In this document: positions 518 through 49,253 of the stretch, piece after piece
How the letters are laid out: every line of letters begins with the position of its first letter
Position numbering within the stretch: position 1 is the stretch's first letter
Assembly (NCBI GenBank): GCA_045643205.1
Contig: JAZUKI010000003.1
Location: 1-64,000, forward strand
Origin: Clostridia bacterium
GTDB lineage: Bacteria; Bacillota; Clostridia; TANB77; CAG-508
Direction: 5' to 3'
Length of the DNA: 64,000 bases
Notes under the pieces: model-generated
Told to the model about the DNA's origin: nothing
Seen by the model: the letters and a program-made list of their open reading frames with translations, nothing else
The model's database searches: none
Program-made: the position numbers and the translations under genes

Positions 518-3500
518 TTAAATTATTGTTTTATTATTGAATGTCTTCTTAATTCCAAATGCTCCTGCTGCAATGATTCCTACTGCGATTAATGATATTA
601 ATATGATTAATGTGTAGTTTCTGTTTTCACCAGTTGGTGGCATTATTACTATTTTTTGTGCTGCATCAGCATCAATTTCTTTTACTTGTACTCTATCTGT
701 TTGGTCAAGATCATCTGTTGCTTCTGATGTATTCTTAGCCATCTTTTCATTTCCAACGACTGAGTAATTCATTCTTCTACCTTGTTCATTTGATGTTTCA
801 ATAATTTCTGTCATGTTGTTATATACTGAATTTGCTTTATTGTTTACACTTAATTGTGTAGATAGTCTTAATAATGTAGCTTTTGTGTTGTTTCCTTTAT
901 TAACTACTGTTGGTAATAAATCACCTTCAAGATCTTTTGTTGTTAATAAAGTATTATATGAAGCAATTCTTGTATAGTATTCTCTGTTTACTAAATCGTT
1001 TTCAATGTTTCCGCCATTATTAGAATTTGTTAAATCTTGTGATGTAACAACGTTCCAATTTGAGTCTTCTGATTGATTTGATGCTATGTAAGATATTTCG
1101 TTTGAAACATAGTCAACAATTTGTTTTGCATTTGTTTTTGCAATATTTTCTGTTGAGCTATTGTTTGTTTTACCTGTATAGTAGAATGCTAAATCTTTAT
1201 AATCAATTTCACCAATATTTTCTACAGTTATTCTATAGTCTGCTACTAGTGTTGATCCTTCTAAGATTTCATCATCAATTTGTGTTTGAATTATTTCAGG
1301 TGTTTTTCCTGGTGCATCATAACCGAATTGATATCCTGTTAATAATCTTCCGCTTCCTACATCTTTATAAACTCCAATATGTGGATTGTGTTTATTGAAT
1401 GTTAATCCGCTTACACCTTGATTTGTATTGAATAATACTTGACCGTCTGATAATTGAATTTTTATATTTGCTATTTCTTTATTGATTTTTAATTGTGCAA
1501 CTGGTCTTTGTTCTAGTCCTAAATCTATATCATCTAATGTGTAATGTTTTTGATTAATATTTGTTGGATCTACAACTGTTCTTGTTGTGTTCTTTTCAAC
1601 TTCTGTATTGATAATACCAGTTTGAGCAACTCCATATGTGTTAGTTTCTAATTCATCTATCATTCTTCTTTGTAATTCATCTGGTTGATATGTTGCTAAT
1701 TTATAGAATGATGCTAAAACTTCTGCTCTATTGTTTACTAATGTTTTTCCGTTATATCCTTTTGAGTAGTTGTTTGATTTTGTTCTATAGAATGCAACAT
1801 CCTTTGCATCAGAAACTCCTCTTTGTTCTTCGCTTCTAGCAATATCATAGTAGTACATTGATGGTTTGTTTGTTGAATTATTTAATGTTCCATCTTCTAA
1901 TGTGAAGTTTCTTGTATTGTATGCATCTGATGTAAATCCATAAATTGATTTATAAGAAATGCCATTTTGATCAACACCTGTTTGATATGTTGTTGATTTA
2001 TAATCTTGGCCGTTGTATGAAATATCGTTCATACCACTTATTTTACTTGTTCCTAATACTTTGTTTACATCATTTTCTGTTTTTACTAATACTGTTCTAT
2101 CTGTATCACCATAAATAAATCTTATATAGAAATCACCTGCTGGTACAGATTCAAATCCATAGTAACCTTTTGCATTATCGTAGTTTAATAATTGTTCTAC
2201 ATATAATATATTGTTTTGACTTGATGTACCGTTTTGTAAAATAATCTTTGAACATCCAATTCCTGAATAGTAAGATTTATCTTGTGGATTTGTTTGTGAT
2301 TGTGAAACATTAATTTTTTCACTTGCTCCTGCAAAATCGTAAACTACTGTTCCCCAAACTTTTTCACCAATATATCTTCCTGTTGATGTTCCATATTTAT
2401 CAACTTCTTGAACTGCTTCAACTAATTCAACTGTTACACCATCGATTTTTGTTTCATTGTTATCTTTACCATCTCCAACAACAGCTCTATCACTTTCTTT
2501 GTTTCTTGAATCTTCATAAACATATCCTGATAATGTTCTGTTGTCTTCTTTTCTTGTATCGATAATTATTTTGATGTTTGGTGCTTGGCTAGCATCTTTT
2601 TGTGTTCTATCATTTATTGGATCAATCTTGTCTCCACCAGCTTGTCTTATCATTCCGTTTGAATCTAAATCATATTGTGATAAGTTTCCTGGATTTGAGA
2701 TTGAATCTACTTTACCAGCTTTTGTTGATAAAGGTTCTGTTATTTCAGTGTGTGTTCCTGTTCCATCTGCATTTAAGTTTTCTGGAATTTTTGTTCCTAC
2801 TGAATAATATGTTTCATATTGATTAATTTCAGCAATGTTACGTTTTCCAATTGTTTCAATACCATTCTTTAATGATTGGTCTAACCAAACTTTTTGTGTT
2901 TCAGGATTGTTGTTAACTTTGAATGTAACAAATAAGTTTACGAATTGTCCTGGTTGTAAGTAATCTACAAATGTTCCATTGTTCTTAACTTTAATTCCTG
3001 ATAAGTATAGTTCAGAATAGTCATTGCTAATCTTTGTATTTCTTCCTGTTATTGATGTTGTTTTAATATTAATATCGTGTTGATTTTTTACGTTACCGTT
3101 AAAGTCTACTGATGATGCTGCATATGTGTTATGATGTGAACCAACTTTGTTTCCGTTTGCATCATATTCATCATATTCAACTGGTGTGTATGTATCTCCT
3201 GATAATACTCCGTCGAATGTGTACATCTTTGAATCATAATGATCAACTACTTCATCAATTTTTACATTGTATGCACCACTGTTTTGTAATTTGATTTTAT
3301 ATGTTACATATACTTGTAAATCTTTTGCTGATGAGTTGTTTCCATATGCATCATTTTCATTATATAAGTATTCAGATTTTCTAACTTCTCTAGTATATGC
3401 AAAATCATTTTGATATGTTTTTCCATCTAGAGCATAATCTGATGTTCTTATTGAAACATTGAATGAGTCTTCATCACCCATAACTATTAATTTTCCGTCA

Positions 3501-6460
3501 TCACCTGGTGTTTTATCTACATAGTATGTTCTTCCATCTTTAGCTACCATATATGTGTTATTCATTTCATTTACTGAATAACCTACTAAATATTGTGCTA
3601 ATGCTGAAACATTGTTTGCGCCATTGTAATTATTTAATAATGCTTGTAATTCAATTGCTCCATTGTCTCTCTTTTGATAGAAGTAATCTTGTGATTTACC
3701 GTTTACTTTAACTGTTACTTTGAATATATCTTTGATTAATGAAATTGAATTTTCATCTCTTTCATATAATCCAAAGTCTGTATTTCTAGCTTGGTCACAT
3801 GTTTTGTTATATAAGTATGTATAATTAATTCCACCAAAGTTAAATACTTTTGGTTGATCTGTTTGATATTCTGCACTGTCTTTATTTATATTCTTTATTA
3901 TAAATTGATCATAGAATGGTAATACTGTTTTATCAACATATGTGTATGCAATGTTTTGAATGTCTTGAATGTATGTTACAACATTTCTTGCTTCTGTTTC
4001 ATTTACACCTTTGCTTAACATCCATCCTAAAATTTGTGCATATGCACTATCATAATTTTTTGTTCGGTTCCAAACTATTTTATTGTCATCATTCTTTGGT
4101 TCTCCTCTTGTTGAACCGTCATCATATTTAGCATACTCTAAGAATTGATTCCATACATCTATAAATGTTAATGCACCTTTGTATGGATTTGTTTCATTTT
4201 TTCCTTCGCTGTATGCAATATATTCATGATTTGAATTTTCTAATCTTTGATATTTTGCATAAGCAATTCCTGAATGATTATCTTTTCTATAGTTTTCATT
4301 ATATGAACTAATAATGTCTAATATATCATTGAATGATGCTCTATCAATATCTTTTGCATTTGAGAAACCACCTGATAGGTCTTTCTTATAATATGTATAT
4401 TGATACATTTCACCATTATAGAAGAATCTTACAAAGTAATCTTTCATTGCATTTACTACTGGTTTACCATCACCTGTTATACCGTAGAATCTATATCTTC
4501 CATCTGCATCTGTTGTTGTTTCTGCTTTAAGTTTTGCATTTGCTCCGTTGCCTTCTAATTCAAATAATTGAACTAATATGCCTTTGAATGGTGATTCGCC
4601 GTTATCAAATCTTCCATTGAATCTCATTCCGTTTGTATCTGCACCTTTGATTACATTGTTTTCTATCCATACTAAACCGCCGATTTGCATGTTTACTCTT
4701 GCACCTGCTAATTTAATATTGATGAAATCTGTATGATAGAAATCATGTTCACTTGGAATAATTTCTACTATTGGTTGTATCCATTCAACTTCTTTTTCTT
4801 CAAATTTTACGTCTGTTGTTACTGAGTCTTTTTGTTCACGTTTTTCATTTACTATATGCCATGGTGTTTCTGTATGGTTCCATGATTCTTCGTATGTATA
4901 GTATGAAATGTATGTATATGTTGAACCATCTTCTCTAGTTCCTGTCGCATAGTGTGGTGTACCTTGTACCCATCTTTGAATTTGTACATCTTTTATTTCT
5001 TGTTCAGAATAGAAACCTTTAATTTCTGCATCTTTTTGACGTTGTACCATTTCCCTTGTAATTGTTTGTGTACCATATTTGTCGCTGTTAACTGTTCCAA
5101 TCATGTCTTCAGTTAATCTAAAGTTTGCAGTCCATTTAAATTTCATTACTAATGTACAACTTGCATCTATTTTTATCCATTCATCATATCCTACTGATGG
5201 AACACCATCTCCTACAATGTTTTTCATATCAACGATTGCACAGTGATAATGTCCAACTGCTGAATAATCATCTTCAATTGTTGCTTCAAGATCTAATTCT
5301 AAGTTTTCTTCTGATTCATGATGAATATGAATTTGTGGAACTTCAATTTTTAAATTTTTAATTACTAAAGCTTTTACAGCCCATACTTTAATTTCTCCGT
5401 TAAATGCATCTATGAAGTTAACTTTAATATTTGGATTTCCTATTTCATAAATTCCATCATTGTTTGGTTCATCATAGAATTTGATGTAGAATTCTTCACC
5501 TGTTCTGAAATCAGGGAATGCAATTTCTTCACCATTTGCATTTAAGTATTTTACGTTTTTGCCGTTTATTCCTTCAACTCCATCTGACCATGCAAATCTA
5601 GCTTTGTCGCCAATTTTTGTTGGGTTTGTTAATTCATCATATAATGTATTTTTTGCATTTGCAATTTTTTCGTCAGTTGGTAATAGTTCTGGATCATCCT
5701 TTGCCCAATCAGCAACTTCAATCATATCTGTAGTAATGTTTAATGAAATTTTGTAAGGTCCAACTGTATAACTTTGATCTGCTTGATTTACTAAAACATC
5801 TAATGAATCTTGATCATCTACAGCTGGTGTAACTGTGAAGTTTGTTTTCTTTTCTTGTAATGGCTTAGTTACGTAATAATAAACATTACCAAAATCAGTT
5901 GCTCTGTCTTCTATCTTATCATATTTAGCGATTCCAGATTTTTTTGCCTTGCCATAAGATGTTGAATTGTATTGTACATGTTTACCATATACATTTGATT
6001 CATTTCCCCATCTTTGTGATGCCCATAATACGTGTTGGAATGCTAATCTTGTTTGTTTAACTCCTGCATTATTACTTCTTGGATCAATTGGATATCCATC
6101 TGCTTCATTTGCAATTGAGTGTGATGAAACATAGTACATTGCATAACCAACTGATGGTTCAATTTCTCCTTTATGTTGTTCTTTTAATTCGAATTCAGAA
6201 TATTTAAATCCTGCATGTTCAGAATCTTCATCTTCGTCCTCTGGAACTCCTGATACATAGTCGTAATAATTTGTTGGTGTTGATAATTGATAACAGAACC
6301 AACCCCATAATGTATCAGTTGGGAAAGGTGTGTAATTATAAGGCATTCCGCCAGTTCTCAATTCCATGGCACAAACAGCAGAGGTTAATGAACATAGAAT
6401 AATTATTGATACTATTGGAGATACTATTTTCTTTAGTAATGAATTTTTCTTATAACTCAT
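518..6460 (-). CDS. giant wall-anchored surface adhesin, A-type (putative N-terminal thioester domain, SdrD-B-like and DUF11-like repeats)
   Basis: 1980 aa. Signal peptide; WFC56, FQHVLW, VGPY and WIQ562PIV motifs; SdrD-B-like starts (IGGLVWIE, LSGYVYED) with TTTDADGRYRF; C-terminal MPPTG, hydrophobic helix and KK tail. Paralog of 11357..19093. Confidence 0.8.
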   Translation of the reverse strand: MSYKKNSLLKKIVSPIVSIIILCSLTSAVCAMELRTGGMPYNYTPFPTDTLWGWFCYQLSTPTNYYDYVSGVPEDEDEDSEHAGFKYSEFELKEQHKGEIEPSVGYAMYYVSSHSIANEADGYPIDPRSNNAGVKQTRLAFQHVLWASQRWGNESNVYGKHVQYNSTSYGKAKKSGIAKYDKIEDRATDFGNVYYYVTKPLQEKKTNFTVTPAVDDQDSLDVLVNQADQSYTVGPYKISLNITTDMIEVADWAKDDPELLPTDEKIANAKNTLYDELTNPTKIGDKARFAWSDGVEGINGKNVKYLNANGEEIAFPDFRTGEEFYIKFYDEPNNDGIYEIGNPNIKVNFIDAFNGEIKVWAVKALVIKNLKIEVPQIHIHHESEENLELDLEATIEDDYSAVGHYHCAIVDMKNIVGDGVPSVGYDEWIKIDASCTLVMKFKWTANFRLTEDMIGTVNSDKYGTQTITREMVQRQKDAEIKGFYSEQEIKDVQIQRWVQGTPHYATGTREDGSTYTYISYYTYEESWNHTETPWHIVNEKREQKDSVTTDVKFEEKEVEWIQPIVEIIPSEHDFYHTDFINIKLAGARVNMQIGGLVWIENNVIKGADTNGMRFNGRFDNGESPFKGILVQLFELEGNGANAKLKAETTTDADGRYRFYGITGDGKPVVNAMKDYFVRFFYNGEMYQYTYYKKDLSGGFSNAKDIDRASFNDILDIISSYNENYRKDNHSGIAYAKYQRLENSNHEYIAYSEGKNETNPYKGALTFIDVWNQFLEYAKYDDGSTRGEPKNDDNKIVWNRTKNYDSAYAQILGWMLSKGVNETEARNVVTYIQDIQNIAYTYVDKTVLPFYDQFIIKNINKDSAEYQTDQPKVFNFGGINYTYLYNKTCDQARNTDFGLYERDENSISLIKDIFKVTVKVNGKSQDYFYQKRDNGAIELQALLNNYNGANNVSALAQYLVGYSVNEMNNTYMVAKDGRTYYVDKTPGDDGKLIVMGDEDSFNVSIRTSDYALDGKTYQNDFAYTREVRKSEYLYNENDAYGNNSSAKDLQVYVTYKIKLQNSGAYNVKIDEVVDHYDSKMYTFDGVLSGDTYTPVEYDEYDANGNKVGSHHNTYAASSVDFNGNVKNQHDINIKTTSITGRNTKISNDYSELYLSGIKVKNNGTFVDYLQPGQFVNLFVTFKVNNNPETQKVWLDQSLKNGIETIGKRNIAEINQYETYYSVGTKIPENLNADGTGTHTEITEPLSTKAGKVDSISNPGNLSQYDLDSNGMIRQAGGDKIDPINDRTQKDASQAPNIKIIIDTRKEDNRTLSGYVYEDSRNKESDRAVVGDGKDNNETKIDGVTVELVEAVQEVDKYGTSTGRYIGEKVWGTVVYDFAGASEKINVSQSQTNPQDKSYYSGIGCSKIILQNGTSSQNNILYVEQLLNYDNAKGYYGFESVPAGDFYIRFIYGDTDRTVLVKTENDVNKVLGTSKISGMNDISYNGQDYKSTTYQTGVDQNGISYKSIYGFTSDAYNTRNFTLEDGTLNNSTNKPSMYYYDIARSEEQRGVSDAKDVAFYRTKSNNYSKGYNGKTLVNNRAEVLASFYKLATYQPDELQRRMIDELETNTYGVAQTGIINTEVEKNTTRTVVDPTNINQKHYTLDDIDLGLEQRPVAQLKINKEIANIKIQLSDGQVLFNTNQGVSGLTFNKHNPHIGVYKDVGSGRLLTGYQFGYDAPGKTPEIIQTQIDDEILEGSTLVADYRITVENIGEIDYKDLAFYYTGKTNNSSTENIAKTNAKQIVDYVSNEISYIASNQSEDSNWNVVTSQDLTNSNNGGNIENDLVNREYYTRIASYNTLLTTKDLEGDLLPTVVNKGNNTKATLLRLSTQLSVNNKANSVYNNMTEIIETSNEQGRRMNYSVVGNEKMAKNTSEATDDLDQTDRVQVKEIDADAAQKIVIMPPTGENRNYTLIILISLIAVGIIAAGAFGIKKTFNNKTII

Positions 6461-11356: not shown

Positions 11357-14300
11357 TTATTTATCATAAACCTTTTTCTTAATTATTACTGCACCTACTA
11401 ATACGATAATTGTTGCAATTGTTGTTGTAATAATTGTTAGTATCTTATTTCTGTATTCTGGACTACCTGTTGGAGGTAAGATTTGAATTTGTTGAGCACT
11501 GTCTGCATCAATTTCTTTTGGTTGTACTATCTTAGATGATGAATATGCATGGTGTTCTTGATCGCCTCTTGTTCCGCCACCGTCATTGATATCTTGGTTA
11601 GCCATTTCTTGGTTTCCAGAAATAGAGAATTGCATTCTTCTACCATATGAGTTTGAAGTTTCAATTACTTCAGCTAGGTTGTTATATGTTAAGTCTTCAC
11701 TATTTCCACTTGATGTTATTGATGTTGTAAGTATTAATGTTGTGTTATCAATATTGTGTCCTTCTAGTGATTTGTTGTTCTTTACATATAATGTTGGTAA
11801 TAAATTGTCATTCATATCCTTTGTAACAACGATTGTATTGTATGTAGATACTTCGTTTGCATATGTTCTTGTTACATAGTCTCTATTAATCTTATCATAT
11901 AAATTACCAACTGCATTTCTAGGAGTAATCTTGTTAATGAATCCATTGTTTGTACTTGGTACATCTTTGAATTCTGCATTAAATTCTGTATCAGTAATTT
12001 GAGCAATTACATTGTTTTTGAATGAATCTTCTGTAATTCTAGATTGCATTATTTCACTTGCTTTATATACATCCCAATGTGCATCTGAGTTTTGTTTTGC
12101 TGAATCATATGATGCGTCGTTTGGAACATAATCAATTACTCTTACAACTTTTGTTCTAACTGGTTCTGTAGCTGCTGCTGACTTTTTACCAAAGTAGTAG
12201 AAATCTCTATCTTGATAATCAATTTCACCAACGTTTTCTACTTGTAAGTGGTATGTTACGTTTATTGTAGCGCCGTTCATAATCTCATCATCCATTTCTG
12301 CTTTGATTAATTCTGGTTTAGCTTGTGTATCTAATGTTACTCTTACACTTTCAAGTGTAGGTCCATTTCCTTTATTACTATATGTAATTTCATGTTGACT
12401 ATGATCTTTAAACATTAAGTTCTTCATAGAAGTGTTAGCGTTGAACAAGGTTTGTCCGTCTGCTAATTTAATTTCAACATTTGATACTTCTTTAGTTAAT
12501 TTAACTTGTGCTTTTGGTCTTTCTACTAATCCTAAATCAACATTTTTTAAATGGTTTTCGTGTGTAGTATTTCCATATACAGTGTGTAATGATGTTAAAT
12601 TATCGCTATTTCCTGTTTCTGTATTGTTGTTTTTATCATTGATGCCTTCATATTCATTATTCATTGAAATAATACCTGTTTGTGCAACCATGTATGTGTT
12701 CTCGATTAATTCATTAATTAATGCTATTTGGGCTTTTGAGTTTGGTGTTCCATCTTTATTTTCTTGAGATGTTACTTTTTCAAATGAGTCTAATACTTCT
12801 GCTCTATAATTTAATAATGTTTTTTCACTTTCTGTTACACCTGTTGTATAACCTTGTGCGTAATCAATTCCACGTTGTCTGTATCCATATAAATCATTTG
12901 CATCTGATAGTCCTGGTAAGTTTTGTGTTGCCACTCTATCGTATCTCCACATAGTGTCATATGCATTTGAAATGTTTGTTCTTGGATTTGCCCCTTGAAC
13001 ATTTCTTGATGCATTCAAATCTCCACTATTGTTGATTGGTTGTCCAGCATAGTAAATTATACCGCTATTATATAATTGTTCTTTTGATCTTAATGTGTTG
13101 TTATTGTAATTATATGTACTTGCATAATCTTGTTTTGCTGTGTCTAGATAACCTGCTACTTGTTGATTGTTCTTCATTTTGTAGCTTATTGCATTTTGAT
13201 TTACTTGTTTATTTGTACTTACGTTTCTTTGATATACAGTTGATTTATAATCTTGTCCATTGTATGATTTTGCATTTAAACCTGCAGCTCCAACTAGTGT
13301 ATTTACTTCGTTTACGCCACTTGTTAATACTGTTCTAGTTGTATCACCATATATGAATCTTATTATGAAATCACCACTTGGTAATCCTGCGAAACAATAC
13401 TTACCATCTTCTTGTGGCTCATCAAATTTTGTTGGGTCACTATAAATTTGTGCTAAGTTACTTGTTGCGTTAAGGATGTACTTTGTTCCTTTGCCTGAAT
13501 AATATTGTGCACCTTGGTTTTGGCTTCCTGCTTTTAATTGATATTGATTATTTTTGTCTGAAGCTAATCCTGTATATTCGCATTCATCCCAAACTTTTTC
13601 GCCAATATATTGACCTGTAAATGTTCCGTCATAATCTACATCTTGTATTAATTCTACTAATTGTACTGTTACACCATTGATTTTCTTTTCGTTGTTGCTT
13701 CTTTCGCCATCGCCAATTGGTGAACCATCGCTGTTTACGTTTCTATCATCTTCAAATACATATCCAGAAATCTTTCTTACTTCATCATTGTCTAAGATTA
13801 ATCTTATTGATGGTGCTTTATCCATGTCTGGCTCAATTTGTGGTAGAGCTTCTTCGTTAGGCTCTCCTTTGTTTAGTTTTGGTCCATTTGGATTTCTTGT
13901 AATCTTTCTATATGAATTGTCTTTGAATTGCATTGACTTGTATTTACCGCCTTCAGTGTAAACAACTTCTACGTTACTGCTTCTGAAGTTTCCTGGATCA
14001 GAATATACATCTACCATACCTGCATTGAACATCTCAGGATTTGATTGATATGTTTCTTCTCCAACTTGTTTACCTTTTGCATCTAAGTATATTGCTTTTC
14101 CGCCTGTATACTTAACCATTCCTATTCCATATGGTGTATAGAATACTTTTTCATCTGCCATAGTAGCATCAGCTGGAATGTTTGCACTGTAATATGAAGA
14201 GTAACTATTTATTTCTGCAAAATTGTTTTTACCTATTGTAGGTAATTGATCTGCAAAGTCTCTTGTAATTTGGTCTAATTTTATTTGATTTGCAAATGTT

Positions 14301-17300
14301 TTGATGTTCTTATCTATTGAATTATTCTTTACTCTAAATGTTACGAATATTACTGTACCTTGTGATTTTGATAATGTGTATGAACATTGTTCATCTCCAT
14401 TTGCATCTTTTGTTATTACAGGAATTCCTTCTTCTGCTCCTGTTCCTCTAATATATAGAGTCTTTAGATGATATGGTTGTTTGTCATTATCTGCATCTGT
14501 ATTAGGTATGTAGAACTCTTCTTTTACGGCTAGGCCGTTTCCGTTTTTATCGTGTGTATATGCAGAACTTTCATAAATTCCGATATATTCTTTATCTGGA
14601 TTGTGTCCTAATGTATCTCTTAAGTTTGTTGCGTATGTGTATTTGCTTCTTTCTATGTTGCCATCTGTGTTTTCTGTATGTGTTTCTATTTGATATTTTC
14701 CGTTTGCATCAATTATTAAGTTACCTTTTGCATCTTTTACGCCATCAAATTCTAGATTGTCTGCATCATAGTAGTCTGCTATTTCGTTGATTTTTACTGC
14801 GTATGGAGATGTGTTATGGATATGAATTTTATATGTTAAGTATGCTTTGATATTCTTTGAATATTGTCCATTTCCATAAGCTATGTTTTCATCATATAAG
14901 TAATCTGATTTTCTAATCTCTCTATTATATGGTGTACCACCATCTAATGTTTTGTTTATTTTTTCTACATAGTCTGGTTCGAAGTTGTAATTATCGCTAT
15001 CAACAATTTTGTCTTTGTCTGCATAGTTATAAACTTCTTTCTTTCCGTTTACTACTAATGTAGCTTTGTATAAATCTTTTGTAAGTTCTACTTCATTATT
15101 TTCTCTTTGATATGTACCAAAGTTCCAGCAATGACGCAAATCAAATTCTTTGTTATATAAGTTAATGTATACTTCACGTGGTGGTTCATAATAGTGATCT
15201 ATATCATGAACTTCTTCATGTGCTTCTACTTCCCATACTAGATACCACTCTGGGTATGTTGTTGTTTCTGGTCCTGGAGGATTAGGCGTATCAGGTTCAC
15301 CTGTGCCTGGATTATCTTCAGGTGGTGGAGGTGGATAAACAGGGATATCATCTGGCCCAGCAGCTATTTTTATTGGTTCACTTATGTCTGAATTTATATT
15401 TAGAGATGCCAATTTAATATCTTTACTTTCGCCTGTTTTTGGATATTCTATATGAACATATTTTTCACCTTTATATTCATATTCATATATTGTAGTTCCT
15501 TCTTCAAATTTTGTTGTAGGTTGTAAACCTAATTTTTTAATAATTGCTTTCAATGCTTCTGGAATATCTGTAGGGTATATAACATTTGGATTTGGATTTT
15601 CTACCCATCTTTCTTTTAAGTTTAATCTCCATTTTACGTATTTATCCATATATGTTTTTCCCATATCTTTTAAGCAGAATGTTGCTTGTTCTGGGAATGT
15701 TTTTAAATTGGTTTCTCCCATATTTCTTCCATATACAGTTAAGTCTGGTGTGTATGGAACTGATGCTTCTATCATGCAATCTTGAAGATAATGTTTAACA
15801 CTATCACTTAATCCTGAATAATTATAATCTACTGGATATTGTGCTACTTCTTGTTCAGGTAATTTTGCTGGATATTCCCACTGCTTATCTATATCGCTTG
15901 ATACAATTTCACCATTATTTTCATTAATTGGTTCATCTAATTTATTGCCTGGATTATGGTAGAATTGATAATCAATTGATTCTTTAATTAATTCAGCATG
16001 AGTATTGTTTTTTATAAATAAATTATATTGTTCTTCAAAAGTATCTAAATTTGCATTGAAGTTTGGATTGTCTATTGCTTCTTGAACAACATGTTTTAAT
16101 CCATATGCTCTTCCTGTATATGAATAATTTTGATTTAATGTTCCATTGCAGCCTGCATATCTTTGTCCTGCATATGTATAGTTGTTTTCACTTGAGTAAA
16201 TGTCTGTAAAACGAGTATTAAATTCTGTTCTATGTTCATCTACTGCTTTTGATGTGTAATCTTTATATTCTCCGTATGAAGAATCCATTCCAGTATTATA
16301 TAATGTTTGTGTATATAATTGTCCATTATATACAAATTTTACAAAATACTTTCTTAATGGATTTATTAATGGTGTATTATCTGCTATCTTGCCATAGAAT
16401 CTATAGTCACCATTTTTATCTGTGAATGTACTTGTTATATACGTTCCTACTTTATCAATATCGTCATCTGTAATAAATAGATTTCTTTGTGGTTCTTTAT
16501 AATTAATCTTACATTCATAAAGATCAACTTTCATTCCTTGGAAACTCTCTTCATTAAGAATGTCTCTCCAGCCATCCACGCTGTTTTGTCCTAAGCCTTT
16601 GACAGCTATTGATTCTTTCCAGACGTTTCCGCCAAATGCTTCTGCTATTTTTGTTTTTGGCATTGCAAATTTTTCAATTTCTATTTTTGTACCAAATTTA
16701 TATATGTCTGTATCATCTTCTGTTTCGAGCGTTACAAAAGACTGCATATATGCTTTTAATTTTGTTATATTAGCTTGTAACTTTTCTGCTTGATGACGTT
16801 CTGGAGTGCTAGCTCTTCCAAATGTTTCATCATATGGAAACCAAACTGTATATTCTGATATATCACCACCACCTAGTTTATATTCAAAATCATGTTCTCC
16901 TGCTTGTCCTAAGCTTTCCCATAATTCTAATCTTTTTCCATAAGATGCATATTCTAAGGCAAGTTGCCAACCTGTGTTTTGAGTTCTGTATCTAAATCCA
17001 TATGTACTAGCCGGATCATACTCAGTTCCATCCTCTTTTTTATATGAGTGATTTGTATTTCCACCATAAATTTCTACAATTTCCCATGAAGCATTATCTA
17101 AACTATCATGTGTTACATCTTCATATCTTGTATATGGTTCAGAAGTTGTAGGTTTACTTGGTTTTGTATATGTATTGGTTCCTGCATTAGCAGGCGAATT
17201 ACCTGTATTAATTTTACCATTTTTTAATACAAAGTTGTTTACTTGGTCTGCTGAAAGAGACGCATATCTATATCTATATACTGTTTGATTTTGTGTCCAA

Positions 17301-19093
17301 GTATCAACCTTCTCCTCATGTGATTCTATTATTTCTATTATGTTACCATAGCTATCATATTTAGCTTTATCAATAATTGTTTTTTTCTTTGTACTATAGG
17401 ATGTAATTGTTGCTTTTTCTTTTACTATTCCGTAAAATCCTTGTAATTTCATTTCTTTTTTTAGTGGAAATTGGTAATTCTTTTTATGTACGTCTAGATA
17501 ATCTGTATCTTCAGGTCCATTCATTCCCGCATATGAAAAAGGTGTAGTCATATCGCTCTCTCCACCCATTCCTAATACATATAAGTTTGGATAATAATTA
17601 TCTAAATAATAATTTTTTTCCTCTACACCTTCATCTTTATAAGTGTAGGGATTACTTTTTCCATATGAAAACAAACTATTTTTTATTATAGATCTTGTTT
17701 GTGCATTATATACAACAGTATAATCTGGACGATAGATATATCCTAAATTTGAGTACCATGTAATTGGCTTGTTTCCTGTAACTTCATTACCCTCTCCTGA
17801 ACTTATTCTATTCCATATAACATAAAAATCAAATGAATTTTCAAGAGCATGAAAGATTTGGTCAGGATTTTGGCCATAATAACTATAAGATGGAGGAATT
17901 ATTGTTATTTGTCCTGATTTAGATCTAATAATACCATATAATCCTTTTCCTTCAAAAGATCCTTCTTGCCTATGCTCCTTATAATTTACATATGCTCCAT
18001 ATTTTATTTTAAGATCAAACATACTATCATCTGCAGTTCCTAAATTTATAATTGCACCTTCTTTTGCTGGATAAAATTTAATAAAGAAATTGTTTTCATC
18101 ACTAGTTGTATTATTAAATTTAGGAAAATCAACAGGTTGTCCATTCTTATCAACTAAAATAGTGCTGTAAGAATTATTATCTGTACTATTACCTGTTATA
18201 TTATATTTTAATTTATTCTTTGTTGCATCACTAATTCCATTTTTTATAAATTTTTCATTTAATGTTTTGTGTATTGTTAAATAGCTTTCAATATATGCTT
18301 CACTATTTTCAAATTCTACACTATTATCATAATCTATATATTTTTCATGTCCCTGCTGCATAATTTCTTTCATTAAATATTGAATAGCCTCATCTGAAGC
18401 ATCTGTATTTAATTTTAATTGAAATGGTCCGTATATATACGTTCCGTCATTTTGATCAACAAATAAACTTGATTTACTATTTTCAATCTTAAATACCGAT
18501 TTATTCTCTCCAATTGTTTTTTCAAAAATTTCCTCATACACTTTTCTAAATCTTTTTACTTCAATTGGTATTAAATCATCTAATTCTCCAATCCATGAAG
18601 CTTGAGCTTTGATTCCATCAGTTCTATCCAGTAATTCATTAGTTCCAGCTACATCATCTTTTGCATCCCATATTAATCTTTGAAAATCTTTCCACGATTC
18701 TTCTGTTCCACCCAAATTTGCAGGTGTTATTCCGATACTTAAAGCATAAGCTAACTGAGGATTAATATCATCAGTTTTATAAGTATAATTACATTCACTT
18801 GTATCTGGTGAACCTGTTGTAGGAATTCCTTCCTCTAAATTTACCATTATTGGAGGGTATCCTAATTTATTGCAAAAAAACATATTCTCCATATCTTTGC
18901 ATTCATAATTTAAATAGCTTACATATTGTAAATTTGGATAACCTTGTTCTGCAACGCCTCCACCTGTTTTTCCATTGTAATATGTATCAATAATAGACCA
19001 ACCATCCAATGCTTTAACCTTATTGTTGCATAAAAAGGCTATAAAACAAATTGCTATAACAATTAAAATTCTAATAATATTTTTCTTTAGCAT
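11357..19093 (-). CDS. giant wall-anchored surface adhesin, A-type (putative thioester domain, SdrD-B-like repeats, Pro-rich linker)
   Basis: 2578 aa. Signal peptide; FFC74, FQRLIW, YGPF and MQ784SFV motifs; FGGNVWKE and ISGYVFED domain starts; YNGQDYKST motif shared with 518..6460; LPPTG, TM helix and KKK tail. Confidence 0.8.
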   Translation of the reverse strand: MLKKNIIRILIVIAICFIAFLCNNKVKALDGWSIIDTYYNGKTGGGVAEQGYPNLQYVSYLNYECKDMENMFFCNKLGYPPIMVNLEEGIPTTGSPDTSECNYTYKTDDINPQLAYALSIGITPANLGGTEESWKDFQRLIWDAKDDVAGTNELLDRTDGIKAQASWIGELDDLIPIEVKRFRKVYEEIFEKTIGENKSVFKIENSKSSLFVDQNDGTYIYGPFQLKLNTDASDEAIQYLMKEIMQQGHEKYIDYDNSVEFENSEAYIESYLTIHKTLNEKFIKNGISDATKNKLKYNITGNSTDNNSYSTILVDKNGQPVDFPKFNNTTSDENNFFIKFYPAKEGAIINLGTADDSMFDLKIKYGAYVNYKEHRQEGSFEGKGLYGIIRSKSGQITIIPPSYSYYGQNPDQIFHALENSFDFYVIWNRISSGEGNEVTGNKPITWYSNLGYIYRPDYTVVYNAQTRSIIKNSLFSYGKSNPYTYKDEGVEEKNYYLDNYYPNLYVLGMGGESDMTTPFSYAGMNGPEDTDYLDVHKKNYQFPLKKEMKLQGFYGIVKEKATITSYSTKKKTIIDKAKYDSYGNIIEIIESHEEKVDTWTQNQTVYRYRYASLSADQVNNFVLKNGKINTGNSPANAGTNTYTKPSKPTTSEPYTRYEDVTHDSLDNASWEIVEIYGGNTNHSYKKEDGTEYDPASTYGFRYRTQNTGWQLALEYASYGKRLELWESLGQAGEHDFEYKLGGGDISEYTVWFPYDETFGRASTPERHQAEKLQANITKLKAYMQSFVTLETEDDTDIYKFGTKIEIEKFAMPKTKIAEAFGGNVWKESIAVKGLGQNSVDGWRDILNEESFQGMKVDLYECKINYKEPQRNLFITDDDIDKVGTYITSTFTDKNGDYRFYGKIADNTPLINPLRKYFVKFVYNGQLYTQTLYNTGMDSSYGEYKDYTSKAVDEHRTEFNTRFTDIYSSENNYTYAGQRYAGCNGTLNQNYSYTGRAYGLKHVVQEAIDNPNFNANLDTFEEQYNLFIKNNTHAELIKESIDYQFYHNPGNKLDEPINENNGEIVSSDIDKQWEYPAKLPEQEVAQYPVDYNYSGLSDSVKHYLQDCMIEASVPYTPDLTVYGRNMGETNLKTFPEQATFCLKDMGKTYMDKYVKWRLNLKERWVENPNPNVIYPTDIPEALKAIIKKLGLQPTTKFEEGTTIYEYEYKGEKYVHIEYPKTGESKDIKLASLNINSDISEPIKIAAGPDDIPVYPPPPPEDNPGTGEPDTPNPPGPETTTYPEWYLVWEVEAHEEVHDIDHYYEPPREVYINLYNKEFDLRHCWNFGTYQRENNEVELTKDLYKATLVVNGKKEVYNYADKDKIVDSDNYNFEPDYVEKINKTLDGGTPYNREIRKSDYLYDENIAYGNGQYSKNIKAYLTYKIHIHNTSPYAVKINEIADYYDADNLEFDGVKDAKGNLIIDANGKYQIETHTENTDGNIERSKYTYATNLRDTLGHNPDKEYIGIYESSAYTHDKNGNGLAVKEEFYIPNTDADNDKQPYHLKTLYIRGTGAEEGIPVITKDANGDEQCSYTLSKSQGTVIFVTFRVKNNSIDKNIKTFANQIKLDQITRDFADQLPTIGKNNFAEINSYSSYYSANIPADATMADEKVFYTPYGIGMVKYTGGKAIYLDAKGKQVGEETYQSNPEMFNAGMVDVYSDPGNFRSSNVEVVYTEGGKYKSMQFKDNSYRKITRNPNGPKLNKGEPNEEALPQIEPDMDKAPSIRLILDNDEVRKISGYVFEDDRNVNSDGSPIGDGERSNNEKKINGVTVQLVELIQDVDYDGTFTGQYIGEKVWDECEYTGLASDKNNQYQLKAGSQNQGAQYYSGKGTKYILNATSNLAQIYSDPTKFDEPQEDGKYCFAGLPSGDFIIRFIYGDTTRTVLTSGVNEVNTLVGAAGLNAKSYNGQDYKSTVYQRNVSTNKQVNQNAISYKMKNNQQVAGYLDTAKQDYASTYNYNNNTLRSKEQLYNSGIIYYAGQPINNSGDLNASRNVQGANPRTNISNAYDTMWRYDRVATQNLPGLSDANDLYGYRQRGIDYAQGYTTGVTESEKTLLNYRAEVLDSFEKVTSQENKDGTPNSKAQIALINELIENTYMVAQTGIISMNNEYEGINDKNNNTETGNSDNLTSLHTVYGNTTHENHLKNVDLGLVERPKAQVKLTKEVSNVEIKLADGQTLFNANTSMKNLMFKDHSQHEITYSNKGNGPTLESVRVTLDTQAKPELIKAEMDDEIMNGATINVTYHLQVENVGEIDYQDRDFYYFGKKSAAATEPVRTKVVRVIDYVPNDASYDSAKQNSDAHWDVYKASEIMQSRITEDSFKNNVIAQITDTEFNAEFKDVPSTNNGFINKITPRNAVGNLYDKINRDYVTRTYANEVSTYNTIVVTKDMNDNLLPTLYVKNNKSLEGHNIDNTTLILTTSITSSGNSEDLTYNNLAEVIETSNSYGRRMQFSISGNQEMANQDINDGGGTRGDQEHHAYSSSKIVQPKEIDADSAQQIQILPPTGSPEYRNKILTIITTTIATIIVLVGAVIIKKKVYDK

Positions 19094-44203: not shown

Positions 44204-45796
44204 TTATAGATAGTTATCAGGTAAATCGTTTTCTAGTAAAACTACTGTGTTGGCATCATTTTCTTGTGCCATCATTGTGATTGCTACGTTGATATTTTCT
44301 GCCACAAATATTTTATCTTCATCCAATCCTTCTTCCAATAAACCTTCTTTTATTGGCTTAGCTTGTTTTTCACCAACTAATATTGCAATGTCACATTTGT
44401 TTGCAGCATACTTACCTAAATTTTTATTAAACTCTTCTGACTTTTCCCCTAAATCAACAATTCCTGGGGTGATAAATATTTTCTTTCTTGTTTTAAAATT
44501 GCTTAAAACATCAAGTGCCATTCTTGAACCTTTAACATTTGAATTGTATGCATCATCAATTATTAATGATCCATTTAAATTTCTTCTAAGTTGTAATCTA
44601 TGTTCAACTGGTTTTAAATATTTAGCTCCAAGTTTAATTTCATTTTCTTTCATTCCTAATTGATCTGCAACAGCTATTGCACAAACAATATTAAGAATAT
44701 TCAAATCGCCTAATAATTTTGTTGAAATTCTGATTTTATTTTTATTTGGTAGAACAACATTAAACTCTGAACCATTTTCGTTCATTTCAATGTTTTCAGC
44801 ATAATAATCTGCTTCACTTGATAAACCATATTTAATAAATGGTCTATTAATTTTTGTATCTCTAATATTTTCATCTTCCCAGTTTACAATGGCAATACCA
44901 TCCTCAGGAAGACTATCTATTAATTCAAACTTTGTTTTTCTTACATTATCTATACTTTTAAATGTATCTAGGTGCATAGGGCCAACCGCTGTAACTATAC
45001 CAATTTTAGGTTTTGCTATATCGCAAATTTCTTTAATATCTCCTACATATTTTGCACCCATCTCGCAAACAAAGATATCATTTGTTGCTTTAAGCATTTC
45101 ATTAACTGTTCTTGTAACACCCATTGGAGTATTGTAACTTCCAGGTGTCATAATTGGATTAAATTTTTGTGAAAGAATTGTTGTAACTGCATTCTTTGTA
45201 CTTGTTTTTCCAAAACTTCCTGTTATTCCAATTACAGTTAAATCTTTCATATCTGTTAATTTATTTTTAGCATTATTAATAAATTTATTACTAATGTGTT
45301 TTTGAATTGGCGAGTCAATTATATCTATAAAATGCACGTATCTATATGTGAACCATTGCATTAATGTTGCAATTAAAATTCCTATAAACATAACTACATT
45401 ATATTGACTTGCAAAAGTGTATGTTAAAATAATTGCTACTGAAATTATTAACCATACTGAACTTGCTATTACATATTCTCTAATTATTCTCTTTGTAAAA
45501 ACAAATTCTTTCTTTTCTTTTTTCTTTTTTGCCCCAATAATATTTAAGCCTAAACATACTATAACAGAAATAATTAAAGCTAACTCATTCCATATAAAGC
45601 ATATTGGAATTAATGTTCTTACTATTCTAAAAAATGGATATGATTTTGCTTTGTTTTCTCTAATCCATCTTGCATATCTATCTCTATGATAATTTTCAAG
45701 TTGTAAAATATGAAATCCGTTTCTCATTGCTCTTATTAAATATAATTCAACAAAAACACAAAGTAATGATAATAAACTAATTATTGCTATCTTCAT
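44204..45796 (-). CDS. murF: MurF-type Mur ligase with N-terminal membrane domain
   Basis: GITGSFGKTSTK, SYNTPMG, EMGA, HLDTF, IDDAYNSN; about four N-terminal hydrophobic helices; adjacent to ddl. Confidence 0.83.
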   Translation of the reverse strand: MKIAIISLLSLLCVFVELYLIRAMRNGFHILQLENYHRDRYARWIRENKAKSYPFFRIVRTLIPICFIWNELALIISVIVCLGLNIIGAKKKKEKKEFVFTKRIIREYVIASSVWLIISVAIILTYTFASQYNVVMFIGILIATLMQWFTYRYVHFIDIIDSPIQKHISNKFINNAKNKLTDMKDLTVIGITGSFGKTSTKNAVTTILSQKFNPIMTPGSYNTPMGVTRTVNEMLKATNDIFVCEMGAKYVGDIKEICDIAKPKIGIVTAVGPMHLDTFKSIDNVRKTKFELIDSLPEDGIAIVNWEDENIRDTKINRPFIKYGLSSEADYYAENIEMNENGSEFNVVLPNKNKIRISTKLLGDLNILNIVCAIAVADQLGMKENEIKLGAKYLKPVEHRLQLRRNLNGSLIIDDAYNSNVKGSRMALDVLSNFKTRKKIFITPGIVDLGEKSEEFNKNLGKYAANKCDIAILVGEKQAKPIKEGLLEEGLDEDKIFVAENINVAITMMAQENDANTVVLLENDLPDNYL

Positions 45797-45797
45797 A

Positions 45798-46592
45798 TTA
45801 TTTATCCTCCTTTATACTATCGTTTCTTAAGAAGGAATTTAACACTAATGAAACTTCATTTAAATGATTTAAATAAGAGAAATGATCTGCATCTTTGTAA
45901 ACAACTAATGCTGAGTCTGGAATTAGTTGTTCCATTTTCTTTCCTTGATAAAGTGGAGTTGATGAGTCTTTTCCGCCCCAAATTAGTAATGTTGGGCATT
46001 TTATTTTCTTACAGTTTTCAACTTGGCTTTCATTTAAAATGTTATTCATTGTTTGTTTTAAAGCAGATGATGATGCTTTATAATCTGCACTTCCTGCATT
46101 CTTTAGATACTCTTCTTTAGTCTCTTTAATATATTTTGTTTGAGGTATAATATTTAATATTAGTTTTCCTAGTTTATAAGTATAAACTTTTAAATACCAC
46201 ATCAAGCTATGTTTCTTTTTTAAACCAGCACTATCTATTAATACTATTTTTTCACAATTAACAATTCCTCTACCTACTGCATCAATGATGGCTCTACCAC
46301 CATTAGAATGACCTATAAGTATTGGATTTTCAATATTTAAAGCTTGCATAAAGTCTTTAATAAAATTGCCATAATCATCTGAATTCATAGGCTTTTCAAT
46401 TTTATCACTCTTTCCAAAGCCAACAATATCAACTAGATAGCACTTGAAATTATTTTTTAACATATTTGCAATTGGGCGCATTGTTTCTAAATTAGCTAAC
46501 CATCCATGTAGTAAAATTACTTCTTTGCCTTCACCAATTACATCATAATTAATATTTTTATTATTAATTTCGATTTTCAATATTTTCTCCAT
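45798..46592 (-). CDS. alpha/beta-fold hydrolase
   Basis: LHGW, GFGKS, GHSNGG nucleophile elbow, WGGKD, DHF. Confidence 0.9.
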   Translation of the reverse strand: MEKILKIEINNKNINYDVIGEGKEVILLHGWLANLETMRPIANMLKNNFKCYLVDIVGFGKSDKIEKPMNSDDYGNFIKDFMQALNIENPILIGHSNGGRAIIDAVGRGIVNCEKIVLIDSAGLKKKHSLMWYLKVYTYKLGKLILNIIPQTKYIKETKEEYLKNAGSADYKASSSALKQTMNNILNESQVENCKKIKCPTLLIWGGKDSSTPLYQGKKMEQLIPDSALVVYKDADHFSYLNHLNEVSLVLNSFLRNDSIKEDK

Positions 46593-46774
46593 TATGATTT
46601 CCAGTATTTTAAACCCTTGATTAGTTAATCAAAACGTCTCTTCTATTTTACACCTTTTTACCAATTTTTTCAATATTTTTAAGGTTTTCACCGCCTTGTT
46701 ATTGGTCTATTATTTGTATTTAAATAATTATTATGATATAACAAAATAGGTTAATAAAAAACTAAGGAGTAAAA

Positions 46775-47953
46775 ATGAAAATATTAATATTTTATGCTTG
46801 CTATGGTGGCGGTCACTTATCAGCTGCCAACTCAATTAAGCAATATATTGATGATAATTATAAAGATGCAGAAACAGATATCTGTGATTGTATGAAATAT
46901 GTTAATGCAAGAATCGAAAAAATTACTGTTGGTGCATACAATGGAATGGCACGTAAAATGCCTTGGGCATGGGGTAAATTCTATTTCAAATCAGAAAAAG
47001 GTTTTATCTCAGCTGTTAGTAACTTCAGTAACAAAATGATGTCTAAAAAATTATGTAAAAAGATTAATGAAGTTAACCCTGATATTATAATTTCTACACA
47101 CCCTTTCAGTTCACAAATGTGCGCTCACTTAAAGAAAAAGGGCAAGATTAATTGTATGATCGCTAGTGTTATGACTGACTTTGCCTCACATAATCAATGG
47201 CTTGTAAATCATGAATTTCTTGATCAAATCTTTGTTTCTAATGAAAATATGAGACAAAGTATTATTAAAAAAGGAATCAATGAAAACAAAATTTTTACTA
47301 CAGGTATTCCTTTGTCAAATCGTTTTCTTGCTAACTTCAATAAAACTGAAATTAAGAATTCATTAAATCTTTCAAATGATAAAAGAACAATCTTATTTTT
47401 TGGTGGCGGTGAATTTGGTTTAGGTGGTGATAGAACTTTAAAGATTCTAGAAGCTTTTATTGATAACATTAAAGACACCTATCAAATGGTTGTTATTGCT
47501 GGAAAAAATGAAGAAATGAAAAAGAATTTTGAAAAGCTTGTTGCTGAAAAACATGCTGAAGAAAATGTTTTTGTTCAAGGTTTTTCAACACAAGTACCAG
47601 AATTAATGAGCGTTTCTGATTTAGTTGTTACAAAACCTGGTGGATTAACTTCTTCTGAAAGTTTAGTTTCTGGACTTCCAATGGTTATTATTAATCCAAT
47701 ACCTGGTCAAGAAGAACAAAATGCTGACTTTTTAGTAGATAGTGGTATTGCCATTTGGTTAAAGAAAAAGGATGACTTTAATCAAAAAATTTCAGAACTA
47801 TTAGCTGATAAAGATAAATTAAAACAAATGAAAATTAAATCAAAACTTCTAGCAAAAGCAAATTCAACTAAAGATATTTGTTCAACAATTATAGAAAATT
47901 TTAATAACGGTAACTTTTTAAAATCTTCTGAAGGAGAAAATCTAAATGAATAG
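46775..47953 (+). CDS. ugtP: UgtP/MGDG-synthase-family diacylglycerol glycosyltransferase (GT28)
   Basis: GGGHLSAA, STHP, TDF..H..W, TGIP, TKPGGLT.SE, PIPGQEEQN. Confidence 0.85.
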   Translation: MKILIFYACYGGGHLSAANSIKQYIDDNYKDAETDICDCMKYVNARIEKITVGAYNGMARKMPWAWGKFYFKSEKGFISAVSNFSNKMMSKKLCKKINEVNPDIIISTHPFSSQMCAHLKKKGKINCMIASVMTDFASHNQWLVNHEFLDQIFVSNENMRQSIIKKGINENKIFTTGIPLSNRFLANFNKTEIKNSLNLSNDKRTILFFGGGEFGLGGDRTLKILEAFIDNIKDTYQMVVIAGKNEEMKKNFEKLVAEKHAEENVFVQGFSTQVPELMSVSDLVVTKPGGLTSSESLVSGLPMVIINPIPGQEEQNADFLVDSGIAIWLKKKDDFNQKISELLADKDKLKQMKIKSKLLAKANSTKDICSTIIENFNNGNFLKSSEGENLNE

Positions 47954-48521
47954 TATATTTTTAAAAATACTTGTTAGTGTTCCTGCTATTGTTCTTGGGA
48001 CTTTGTTGTTTCCTGCACTTGGAGTTTTGTTGATTTTTTTAAGATATGCAATTTCTGATACTAGAAAAGATAGACGTGGATCAATTTCACTAATTGCAAT
48101 AGGGATTATTTTATTTATTCCCAAAATAATACTTTTATTATCTGAGGCTTTTCATTTTGATCCAAACGTTATACCATTTTTTAAAAACATAATAACTAAT
48201 GACTTCTATAGGATTAACATTTCAAATTGTGCTTTTGCTTTAATCATAATTGGAATTTTTTCATTGGCTCTTTCAATTATATTTAAAAATTTAGTTAATA
48301 AATTTAAAAATCTTTTAGTAGGTTTTGTTCAAAATTCTATTGAAAAGAATGAAGAAACTCATGCTAAAATTAAAAAAGAAAATGATTTAAAAATTAAACA
48401 AATGGAATATCAATCTCAAAATTCACATGTTGTTTCTTGTGATAATTGTGGAGCCACAAATACTATTGTTGGAAACACTGGTGTTTGTGCATATTGTAGA
48501 CAACCTATTAGTAACAAATAA
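47946..48521 (+). CDS. hypothetical membrane protein with C-terminal zinc ribbon
   Basis: three to four hydrophobic segments, CDNCGA...CAYCR; overlaps the ugtP stop by 8 nt. Confidence 0.75.
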   Translation: MNSIFLKILVSVPAIVLGTLLFPALGVLLIFLRYAISDTRKDRRGSISLIAIGIILFIPKIILLLSEAFHFDPNVIPFFKNIITNDFYRINISNCAFALIIIGIFSLALSIIFKNLVNKFKNLLVGFVQNSIEKNEETHAKIKKENDLKIKQMEYQSQNSHVVSCDNCGATNTIVGNTGVCAYCRQPISNK

Positions 48522-48579
48522 TTAAATAATTAAATAATTAAACATTTAATTATTTAAACAATAAAATTTAATTGCAAAA

Positions 48580-48626
48580 TAAAAGAAGAAAATTTGAAAC
48601 AAAAATTTCATAAATTTTCTTCTTTT
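48580..48626. terminator. bidirectional terminator
   Basis: AAAAGAAGAAAATTT...AAATTTTCTTCTTTT between convergent genes. Confidence 0.7.
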
Positions 48627-48653
48627 TAATTTTTCTTTTTTATTTTTATATCT

Positions 48654-49253
48654 TTATAATTCTGTTCTGCCTTCTAAAGCTTTTCCTAAAGTAAATTCAT
48701 CAGTGTACTCAAGGTCTCCACCTACAGGAATTCCATGAGCTAATCTAGTTACTTTAATACCCATTGGTTTAATTAGTTTTGAAATATACATAGCTGTTGC
48801 TTCACCTTCAACTTTTGGATTTGTAGCTAAAATAACTTCTTTAACTGTACCATCCATAAGCCTTGCTAAAAGTTCTTTTATTTTAATGTCATCTGGTCCA
48901 ATTCCATCCATTGGAGAAATTGTTCCATGAAGAACGTGATATAAGCCTTTGAATTCATGAATTTTTTCAATTGCTATAACATCCTTAACATCTTCTACCA
49001 CGCAAATTTGTGATTGATCTCTCTTTGGATTTGAACAAATTTCACAAGGATCTGTGTCAGATATATTGTAGCATTTTGAACAAAACTTTAAGTTCTTTCT
49101 AGCATCTTGAATACTCTTTACAAACTCATTTGCTTGTTCTTCAGTAGTATTTAACATATAGAACGCAAGTCTTATCGCTGTCTTGTTTCCTATGCTTGGA
49201 AGCTTTTCAAAACTTTCTATTAACTTTTCAATTGATGGTGAAAATTCTGACAT
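48654..49253 (-). CDS. recR: recombination protein RecR
   Basis: LPSIG.KTA.RLA, C4 zinc finger, [22 protein letters not shown]. Confidence 0.97.

Follow-up and report, generated by a model that had tools for sequence, protein, structure and literature searches.

A1, a giant surface protein of a Clostridia bacterium, with a putative, highly divergent thioester head and a lineage-specific insert

Introduction

Can the two reactive residues of a covalent adhesin head lie 710 residues apart, on either side of a large insert that differs from one lineage to the next? This question is raised by the largest open reading frame (ORF) in the small genome of a gut Clostridia bacterium, here called A1 (11357..19093, minus strand; 2578 residues, the stop codon being included in the coordinates, which were taken from the ORF list and its translation). 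A1 lies in a window of 64,000 nucleotides, the whole stretch of DNA that was analysed (contig JAZUKI010000003.1, positions 1 to 64,000, GenBank assembly GCA_045643205.1). Coordinates below are those of the window unless another contig is named, and all features described are on the minus strand. Among bacterial adhesin modules that attach to their target by a covalent bond, thioester domains (TEDs) have been characterised best. To our knowledge, the biological role and the targets of most of them are unknown.

In characterised TEDs an autocatalytic Cys-Gln thioester is attacked by an amine of the target (PMC6194298, PMC4450167, PMC13685950). The TED motifs come in the order [YFL]C on an early strand, a Q..Phi-W helix, and Phi-Q-zeta-Phi-Phi at the end of the domain (PMC6194298, PMC4450167). 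Class II TEDs have a beta-sandwich inserted before the final hairpin, a fold that accepts an inserted domain (PMC6194298).

Results

We consider it reasonably probable that residues ~28-800 of A1, its head, form a class II-like TED of very divergent sequence. The head follows a signal peptide (residues ~1-27, 19013..19093) made up of MLKKN, a hydrophobic run and VKA, with a putative cleavage site, and it carries every motif that an earlier note on this DNA had named, at the residues given there: FFC74, QLAYAL (113-118), FQRLIW (137-142, including Q138), YGPF (221-224) and YMQSFV (782-787). FFIKFY occupies residues 336-341. The feature with which that note was concerned, 16742..18874, has as its ends the codons of C74 (18872..18874, within FFCNK) and Q784 (16742..16744). 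The order FFC74NK, FQ138RLIW, YMQ784SFV agrees with the published scheme, as do the pairing of C74 with Q784 and the placing of Q138 in a helix that the note had implied (PMC6194298, PMC4450167). At the sequence level a Cys motif, a Q..Phi-W helix motif and a Gln-strand motif are thus all found, the last fitting Phi-Q-zeta-Phi-Phi, and C74 and Q784 are the candidate thioester residues. C74 lies in an N-terminal beta region (residues 28-108, 18770..19012). This is followed by PQLAYAL (residues 112-118, 18740..18760), which is a helix in the structural model described below and probably corresponds to helix alpha1, by FQRLIW (18668..18685), taken as the counterpart of the TQxx-Phi-W helix motif from the invariance of Q138 and the Cys-to-Trp spacing, and by helix alpha3 (residues 177-196, 18506..18565), again a helix in the model.

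Eight orthologues are 39-43% identical to A1 over residues 1-860, with a coverage of 94-100%. Their mean identity to A1 is highest in the stalk (54-74%) and the sandwich frame (61%), followed by the helices (52%) and the Cys lobe (45%), and lowest in the insert (31%) and the return segment behind it (30%). C74 is the sole invariant Cys within residues 28-830 (9/9 orthologues), and Q784, which lies 37 residues ahead of the start of the stalk, is the sole invariant residue within 754-795 (9/9 orthologues), a region that averages 30% identity to A1. A disulfide was dropped as a role for C74 since only one Cys is conserved, and a cysteine-peptidase or transglutaminase was dropped since no invariant His or Asp accompanies the Cys.

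Across the wider family, the Cys is present in 14/15 heads by alignment and in 38/41 by motif scan; the scan covered 45 heads, in 41 of which the helix motif was located by pattern (the distant loci L031-L034 not being captured), a Cys that P0016 seems to have in its signal peptide was not counted, and close relatives make up many of the rows. The counterpart of Q138 is invariant in the family, the helix Trp is found in 38/41 heads with Tyr in the other 3, and P112 and Y116 are invariant across 8 family heads. Distant members show textbook forms of the motifs (AYCVEPG...IQEAVW, YCIE and YCIQ...KQYAIW), and the residue following the Cys can be read from FCID, YCVE, YCIE and FCYQ in relatives. 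A Gln strand precedes the stalk in all nine Cys-bearing lineages in which the stalk start (GGxVW) falls inside the available sequence; in L006 and L002 a Pro-rich linker comes directly after it, so that this strand marks the end of the domain. Cys and Trp are spaced 59-61 apart in the shortest family members, as compared with 58 in EfmTIE86 (Cys88 to Trp146; PMC6194298). Of the 896 ORFs of the genome that are at least 100 residues long, 2 contain the pattern [YFLW]C.{40,100}Q..[ILVA]W, namely A1 and A2; the pair of motifs is more than a chance occurrence.

A2 is a paralogue of A1 (518..6460, 1980 residues) with a similar head and a different, shorter insert. It has the motifs WFC56YQ, FQHVLW (141-146, with Q142), VGPY (233) and FYIKFY (324), a candidate Gln, Q562, in WIQPIV, and an MPPTG sorting motif. 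The two heads have in common a conserved predicted beta-sandwich, the frame, which in A1 comprises residues 201-365 (17999..18493) with VDQNDGTYIYGPF, DFPKF and FFIKFY. That the frame motifs of the two proteins align, as had been claimed, was borne out by BLASTP, in which A1 72-341 matched A2 54-329 with 23% identity (E 1e-6), pairing VDQNDGTYIYGPF with VNQADQSYTVGPY, NGQPVDFPKF with NGEEIAFPDF and FFIKFY with FYIKFY. Comparison of the frames by lineage profiles gave an hhalign probability of 92% (E 6.5e-7, 176 columns).

A bridge from this family to recognised TEDs is provided by a further protein of the same genome. PF20610, searched in 201 genomes of the phylum for sequences to compare, gave 0 matches over its cut-off. 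A search of 401 genomes of the phylum with PF08341 (cut-off 22 bits) gave matches in 12, this genome included, where the match is P0025, a protein of 1250 residues on another contig (C6, ~45287-49039, minus strand, locus L043; 33.1 bits). Five members of the P0025 family were scanned; four passed the cut-off (P0025 33.1, P0029 28.5, P0046 23.7 and P0050 37.6 bits), and P0034 was just under it. The NCBI name of another relative, P0031, is Cys-Gln thioester bond-forming surface protein. When 15 heads of the A1/A2 family were compared with 13 members of the P0025 family, hhalign gave a probability of 87.5% (E 3.6e-6, 92 columns), and a wider version with 19 sequences gave 85.1% (E 6.2e-6) over 149 columns, extending through the FYIxF strand. 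The homologous columns comprise helix alpha3 together with the frame motifs, on the sandwich strands NY..GPYKI and FYI... The A2 lineage alone reached 17.6% (E 0.0014) against the P0025 family. At the edge of the alignment the EPSVGYA/PQLAYA helix was placed on the QQAAIW helix of that family; this equivalence was not adopted, as the Cys-to-Trp spacing favours FQRLIW.

The P0025 family also bears on the pairing of the two candidate residues, as Cys and Gln co-vary in 13/13 members: a QP[VL]V strand lies ~25 residues ahead of the stalk in all nine that have the Cys, and the four without it have T, T, T or E at the Gln position. Similar strands are found at the matching place in A2 (WIQPIV), L011 (SLQPIV) and L029 (VIQPGI), and the end of the A2 insert region with its Gln strand aligns weakly with the Gln strand of the P0025 family (E 0.01). 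P0025 itself, with Ser where the Cys would be and Thr where the Gln would be, looks like a thioester head that has been naturally disarmed but nonetheless retained.

Structure prediction and protein language models were consulted on the same region. AlphaFold2 models were obtained for A1 28-830 from 13 sequences (mean predicted local distance difference test, pLDDT, 56.8) and for residues 27-394 of a short relative, L005, from 15 sequences (mean pLDDT 62.4). Three helices and the sandwich are resolved in both; the Cys strand is not resolved, and the Gln strand not confidently so. For both models the top fold matches, although weak, are the TED structures 6FWV and 6FWY, and Foldseek on the A1 model gave nothing at E<=0.001. 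Sandwich-type matches span residues 170-790 of the low-confidence A1 model, from which it would follow that the strands behind the insert rejoin the frame. For A1 28-350 the neighbouring clusters in the language model carry TED_2, TEDa_beta and TED (0.91, 193/256 features); the ten best named neighbours share one family or clan, with low recognition. A relaxed hhalign comparison with mixed canonical TEDs aligned Cys with Cys and Q..W with TQ..W, without significance.

Several results weigh against the interpretation of the A1 head as a TED. The curated models PF08341, PF20610, PF26764 and TIGR03934 miss both A1 and A2 (Pfam at E<=10, NCBIfam at E<=1), and curated TED models also miss 19 further heads of the family at E<=5, with the exception of L030 (PF08341, E 0.9). 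Searches of PDB sequences with phmmer and with family profiles gave no TED, and the family compared with a mixed alignment of 15 canonical PF08341 loci reached an hhalign probability of 0.36%. The region of significant alignment with the P0025 family leaves out both Cys and Gln. The A1 lineage alone is not significant against that family (probability 0.8%, E 0.066), which means that the link of A1 to recognised TEDs is transitive, through its own family. The four Cys-less members of the P0025 family are related to one another, three of them sharing 75-81% identity, so that there may have been only one or two loss events behind the co-variation, and within the A1/A2 family co-loss was not seen, since the Cys-less relative P0024 may retain a Gln strand (SFQIS); P0016 and P0017, also Cys-less, are short. 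In A1 itself the residue following the Cys is Asn, not a hydrophobic one. Lastly, both structural models are poor: confidence falls below 50 at the Cys strand, in A1 throughout the N-terminal beta region (residues 28-108), and again either at the Gln strand or shortly ahead of it.

The head might be unrelated to TEDs, another kind of beta-sandwich tip in which the short Cys, Q..W and Gln motifs are alike by chance. The failure of curated TED models and PDB sequence searches, and the weakness of all structural matches, are what this explanation would predict. It does not account for the profile match to a Pfam-recognised TED family (E 3.6e-6), for the two TED entries that top the fold searches with two separate models, for the ten best named language-model neighbours, all of which are TED families, or for the restriction of the Cys/Q..W pair to just 2/896 ORFs; nor is there an invariant His or Asp pointing to a site of the Cys-protease type. 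We therefore regard it as highly improbable.

A different explanation accepts descent from a thioester domain and holds that A1 has no thioester, the Cys being a free thiol or serving some other role, or that Q784 is not the Gln with which the Cys pairs. Cys-less versions are evidently tolerated in the family (P0016, P0017 and P0024) as they are in the recognised TED family, P0025 included, the site is not resolved in either model, and A1 28-830 contains seven invariant Gln (Q56, Q113, Q138, Q214, Q246, Q376 and Q784). Moreover, the A1 model has a strand-helix-strand ahead of Q784, in contrast to the simple hairpin of A2 and L005. Set against this, C74 and Q784 remain invariant amid variable surroundings, Q784 lies on the strand immediately ahead of the stalk, which is where co-variation with Cys is seen in the TED family, and the helix Gln to which Q138 corresponds is non-bonding in known TEDs (PMC6194298, PMC4450167). 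On this evidence we consider a missing or differently paired thioester to be unlikely. The covalent-harpoon chassis proposed in the earlier note accounts best for the data and stands in part, on indirect evidence: motif order, the profile match, co-variation, weak TED fold matches and language-model neighbours speak for it, and the lack of any TED model match, the non-significance of the A1 lineage alone and the poorly modelled Cys and Gln strands speak against it.

Between the frame and the return segment lies the lineage-specific insert (residues 366-745, 16859..17998), after which the return segment (residues 746-800, 16694..16858) brings the candidate final strands in the low-confidence model. 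The inserts of A1 and A2 are dissimilar, as had been supposed: BLASTP gave nothing at E<=10, and lineage profiles gave an hhalign probability of 0.2% (E 0.35). Across the family the stretch from frame to stalk varies from 134 to 875 residues, with similarity within lineages only (A1 with P0009 and P0011 28%, A2 with L011 42%, L005 with L006 38% identity). Among the 8 A1 orthologues, by contrast, the insert is colinear, 29-34% identical to that of A1 with 10% gaps, and 44/395 of its residues are invariant. Different inserts, as proposed in the earlier note, are found between lineages, where lengths differ and no cross-lineage similarity is seen, and these may be swappable; within the A1 lineage the insert is not hypervariable. 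Parts of the insert are modelled with block-mean pLDDT values of 54-85 over model residues 521-680, and its language-model neighbours are RHS-repeat clusters (0.80, 81 features), which is at noise level.

One member of the family deserves separate description. P0024 (2523 residues) is without a Cys, Tyr replaces the helix Trp, and its stretch of 875 residues between frame and stalk consists of repeats of ~90-100 residues (EKQ.AWDEYNAQQKNN) with Gly/Ser/Asn-rich linkers. This is a very different filling of the insert position.

It is plausible, from its position and its lineage-specific replacement, that the insert sets specificity. Lying between the sandwich and the bond-forming strand, and differing completely between lineages, it would be the likeliest site of target recognition. 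It could instead be a loosely constrained spacer or decoration that has drifted or been replaced without consequence, the target being chosen by another part of the head such as the loops surrounding the bond, as has been proposed for known TEDs. We regard this as possible, if not favoured. The insert has no recognisable family, varies in length from one lineage to another over the range given above and is, together with the return segment, the least conserved part of the head (31% and 30%, with 10% gaps in the insert); in known TEDs, too, it is the loop joining strands A and B, not the sandwich side, that has been proposed to confer specificity (PMC6194298). A spacer would not, however, be expected to be retained and colinear in 8 orthologues with its invariant positions, nor to fold in parts with moderate confidence, and ~1.1 kb is spent on the A1 insert alone in a genome of 1.0 Mb.

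The stalk of A1 (residues 801-2578, 11360-16693, ~1780 residues) begins with a domain (residues 811-940, 16274..16663) that is SdrD_B-like by homology. An SdrD-B-like domain had been placed after Q784 in the earlier note; Pfam detects none in A1 (0 families), and what supports it is homology with the start of the A2 stalk, A1 811 onwards aligning with A2 584 onwards (29% identity, E 1e-15). PF17210 matches A2 614-662 with 25 bits, under its cut-off of 29.7, which is passed at the matching place in the relatives L028, L033 and L034. The long remainder of the stalk (residues 941-2538, 11480..16273) has no recognised domain, and the stalk as a whole has no Pfam match apart from Cytochrom_C550 at chance level (E 0.01) and no match among PDB sequences. 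Residues 1309-2578 at the C-terminus are 33% identical to A2. The A1 stalk is thus a large, conserved and unannotated architecture. It ends with an LPPTG sorting signal, a hydrophobic segment and a KKK tail (residues 2539-2578, 11360..11479), as read from the sequence. With its signal peptide, N-terminal head, long stalk and C-terminal LPPTG, A1 has a TIE-type architecture and is most likely a sortase-anchored fibrillar adhesin.

A1 belongs to a row of four co-directional genes, P0002 (19338-24206), A1, P0003 (6476-11158) and A2, located downstream of minC, a gene for a PBP2-type penicillin-binding protein, and mreBCD. These are the four largest ORFs in the genome, with 7740 residues in all and ~2.3% of its DNA. 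The genome (1,008,328 bases in 10 contigs, rated 100% complete) contains five sortase matches over cut-off and 10 ORFs with LPXTG-like tails. The large share of surface proteins and the presence of sortases in so small a genome suggest a strongly attachment-dependent lifestyle.

The partner proteins P0002 and P0003 (~1600 residues each) are paralogues with 30% identity, and one precedes each TED-like adhesin, P0002 before A1 and P0003 before A2, the latter with a gap of 15 nucleotides. SdrD_B domains are found in both and DUF11 in P0003. In 10/19 related loci (L001, L002, L005-L011 and L018; within the first 4000 bases) the gene immediately upstream of the head gene codes for a homologue of the partner. 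Head gene and partner gene form a conserved two-gene module. At the C-termini of P0003 (6476-6600) and P0002 (19338-19470), IATGR or LSTGG and not an LPXTG-type motif comes before the hydrophobic segment and basic tail, and the two partners may be anchored in another way than A1 and A2.

The head family is rare. With A1 1-350 as the query, an exhaustive phmmer search of 1.84 billion representatives retrieved just 7 proteins at E<=0.001, not enough to build a deep alignment. Head loci were found 8 times in 185,579 species genomes, all of them uncultured Clostridia bins with record titles that refer to sheep jejunum and 'Lapin' samples, and 11 times in metagenome contigs. In a sample of the order the head occurs in 8/151 genomes, all of one family (7/52 without the present genome), and it is found in 3/3 other genomes of the genus; the present genome has exactly two copies. 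At one locus (L019, on a metagenome contig of 1.2 Mb) a head gene of the L003 type is open for 44 codons and then has a stop, and this may be a broken copy or an assembly error.

Discussion

Read as a class II-like TED, the A1 head would work as follows. Its N-terminal beta strands would bear C74; the conserved beta-sandwich with the frame motifs would be followed by the ~380-residue lineage-specific insert, from which the chain would return so that the final strand bears Q784. C74 and Q784 would then form an autocatalytic internal thioester, and a nucleophile of the target would attack it as in characterised TEDs, the target ending up bonded to the Gln side chain. The sequences show the motifs and their conservation, the homology of the A1 and A2 frames, the homology of the family to a recognised TED family and the dissimilarity of the inserts. 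How the Cys lobe folds, that C74 and Q784 are bonded, that binding is covalent and what the insert does are inferred, and the chemistry of the A1 head is taken by analogy from characterised TEDs.

It could further be envisaged that the head first recognises and then locks, a conserved thioester warhead being split by a repeatedly replaced nested domain that retargets covalent attachment. The A1 and A2 heads, each with a second giant surface protein, would in that case be the main hold of the bacterium on a host surface or a partner microbe, and the nested domain might gate access to the bond. In this full form we hold the proposal to be rather doubtful. If the class II-like reading is correct, the TED fold tolerates a large, exchangeable nested domain beside its warhead, which bears on the evolution of specificity and on the engineering of covalent binders. 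Surveys based on curated TED models would also undercount covalent adhesins in uncultured gut Clostridia, the family being invisible to the models tried. The four giant proteins, with their share of a 1.0-Mb genome, point to attachment as central to the life of the organism.

Comparison with known systems helps to place the head. In the literature examined, no TED was found to be described whose nested insert runs to several hundred residues. The P0025 family, which belongs to the same organism group, shares with the A1 family the homology of helix alpha3 and sandwich and a QPxV-type Gln strand before the stalk (as in A2). It differs in that it passes PF08341, has a stalk of DUF11 repeats and has no extra insert, with ~40 residues between the FYISVP strand and the Gln; P0025 itself, unlike A1, has lost both Cys and Gln. 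The class I TEDs SfbI-TED (5A0L), CpTIE-TED (5A0G) and Cpa share the proposed chemistry, in which a Cys-Gln thioester and an amine of the target give an intermolecular isopeptide bond, the target of SfbI being fibrinogen, bound through a lysine amine (PMC4450167). Unlike A1, they have no beta-sandwich insertion and have a short linker before the final strands (PMC4450167).

The closest likeness in layout is to the class II TEDs BaTIE (6FWV), EfmTIE86-TED (6FWY) and SaTIE-TED, with which the A1 head would share the N-terminal tip position on a sortase-anchored stalk protein and the order of a Cys motif, a helix bundle with Q..Phi-W, a sandwich before the final strands and a Gln on the last strand (PMC6194298). 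The Cys-to-Trp spacing of ~58-61 is likewise shared (PMC6194298). The distance from Cys to Gln, on the other hand, is 710 residues in A1 and 171 in SaTIE and 204 in EfmTIE86 (PMC6194298), and, unlike class II TEDs, the A1 family has an extra insert of 134-875 residues between the sandwich and the Gln strand, its thioester is a predicted one, and the A1 head escapes all sequence models. In this last respect A1 resembles the divergent TED clusters of predicted fibrillar adhesins, whose tips are likewise missed by PF08341 and were found to be TED-like by iterative search and structure prediction (PMC9210967).

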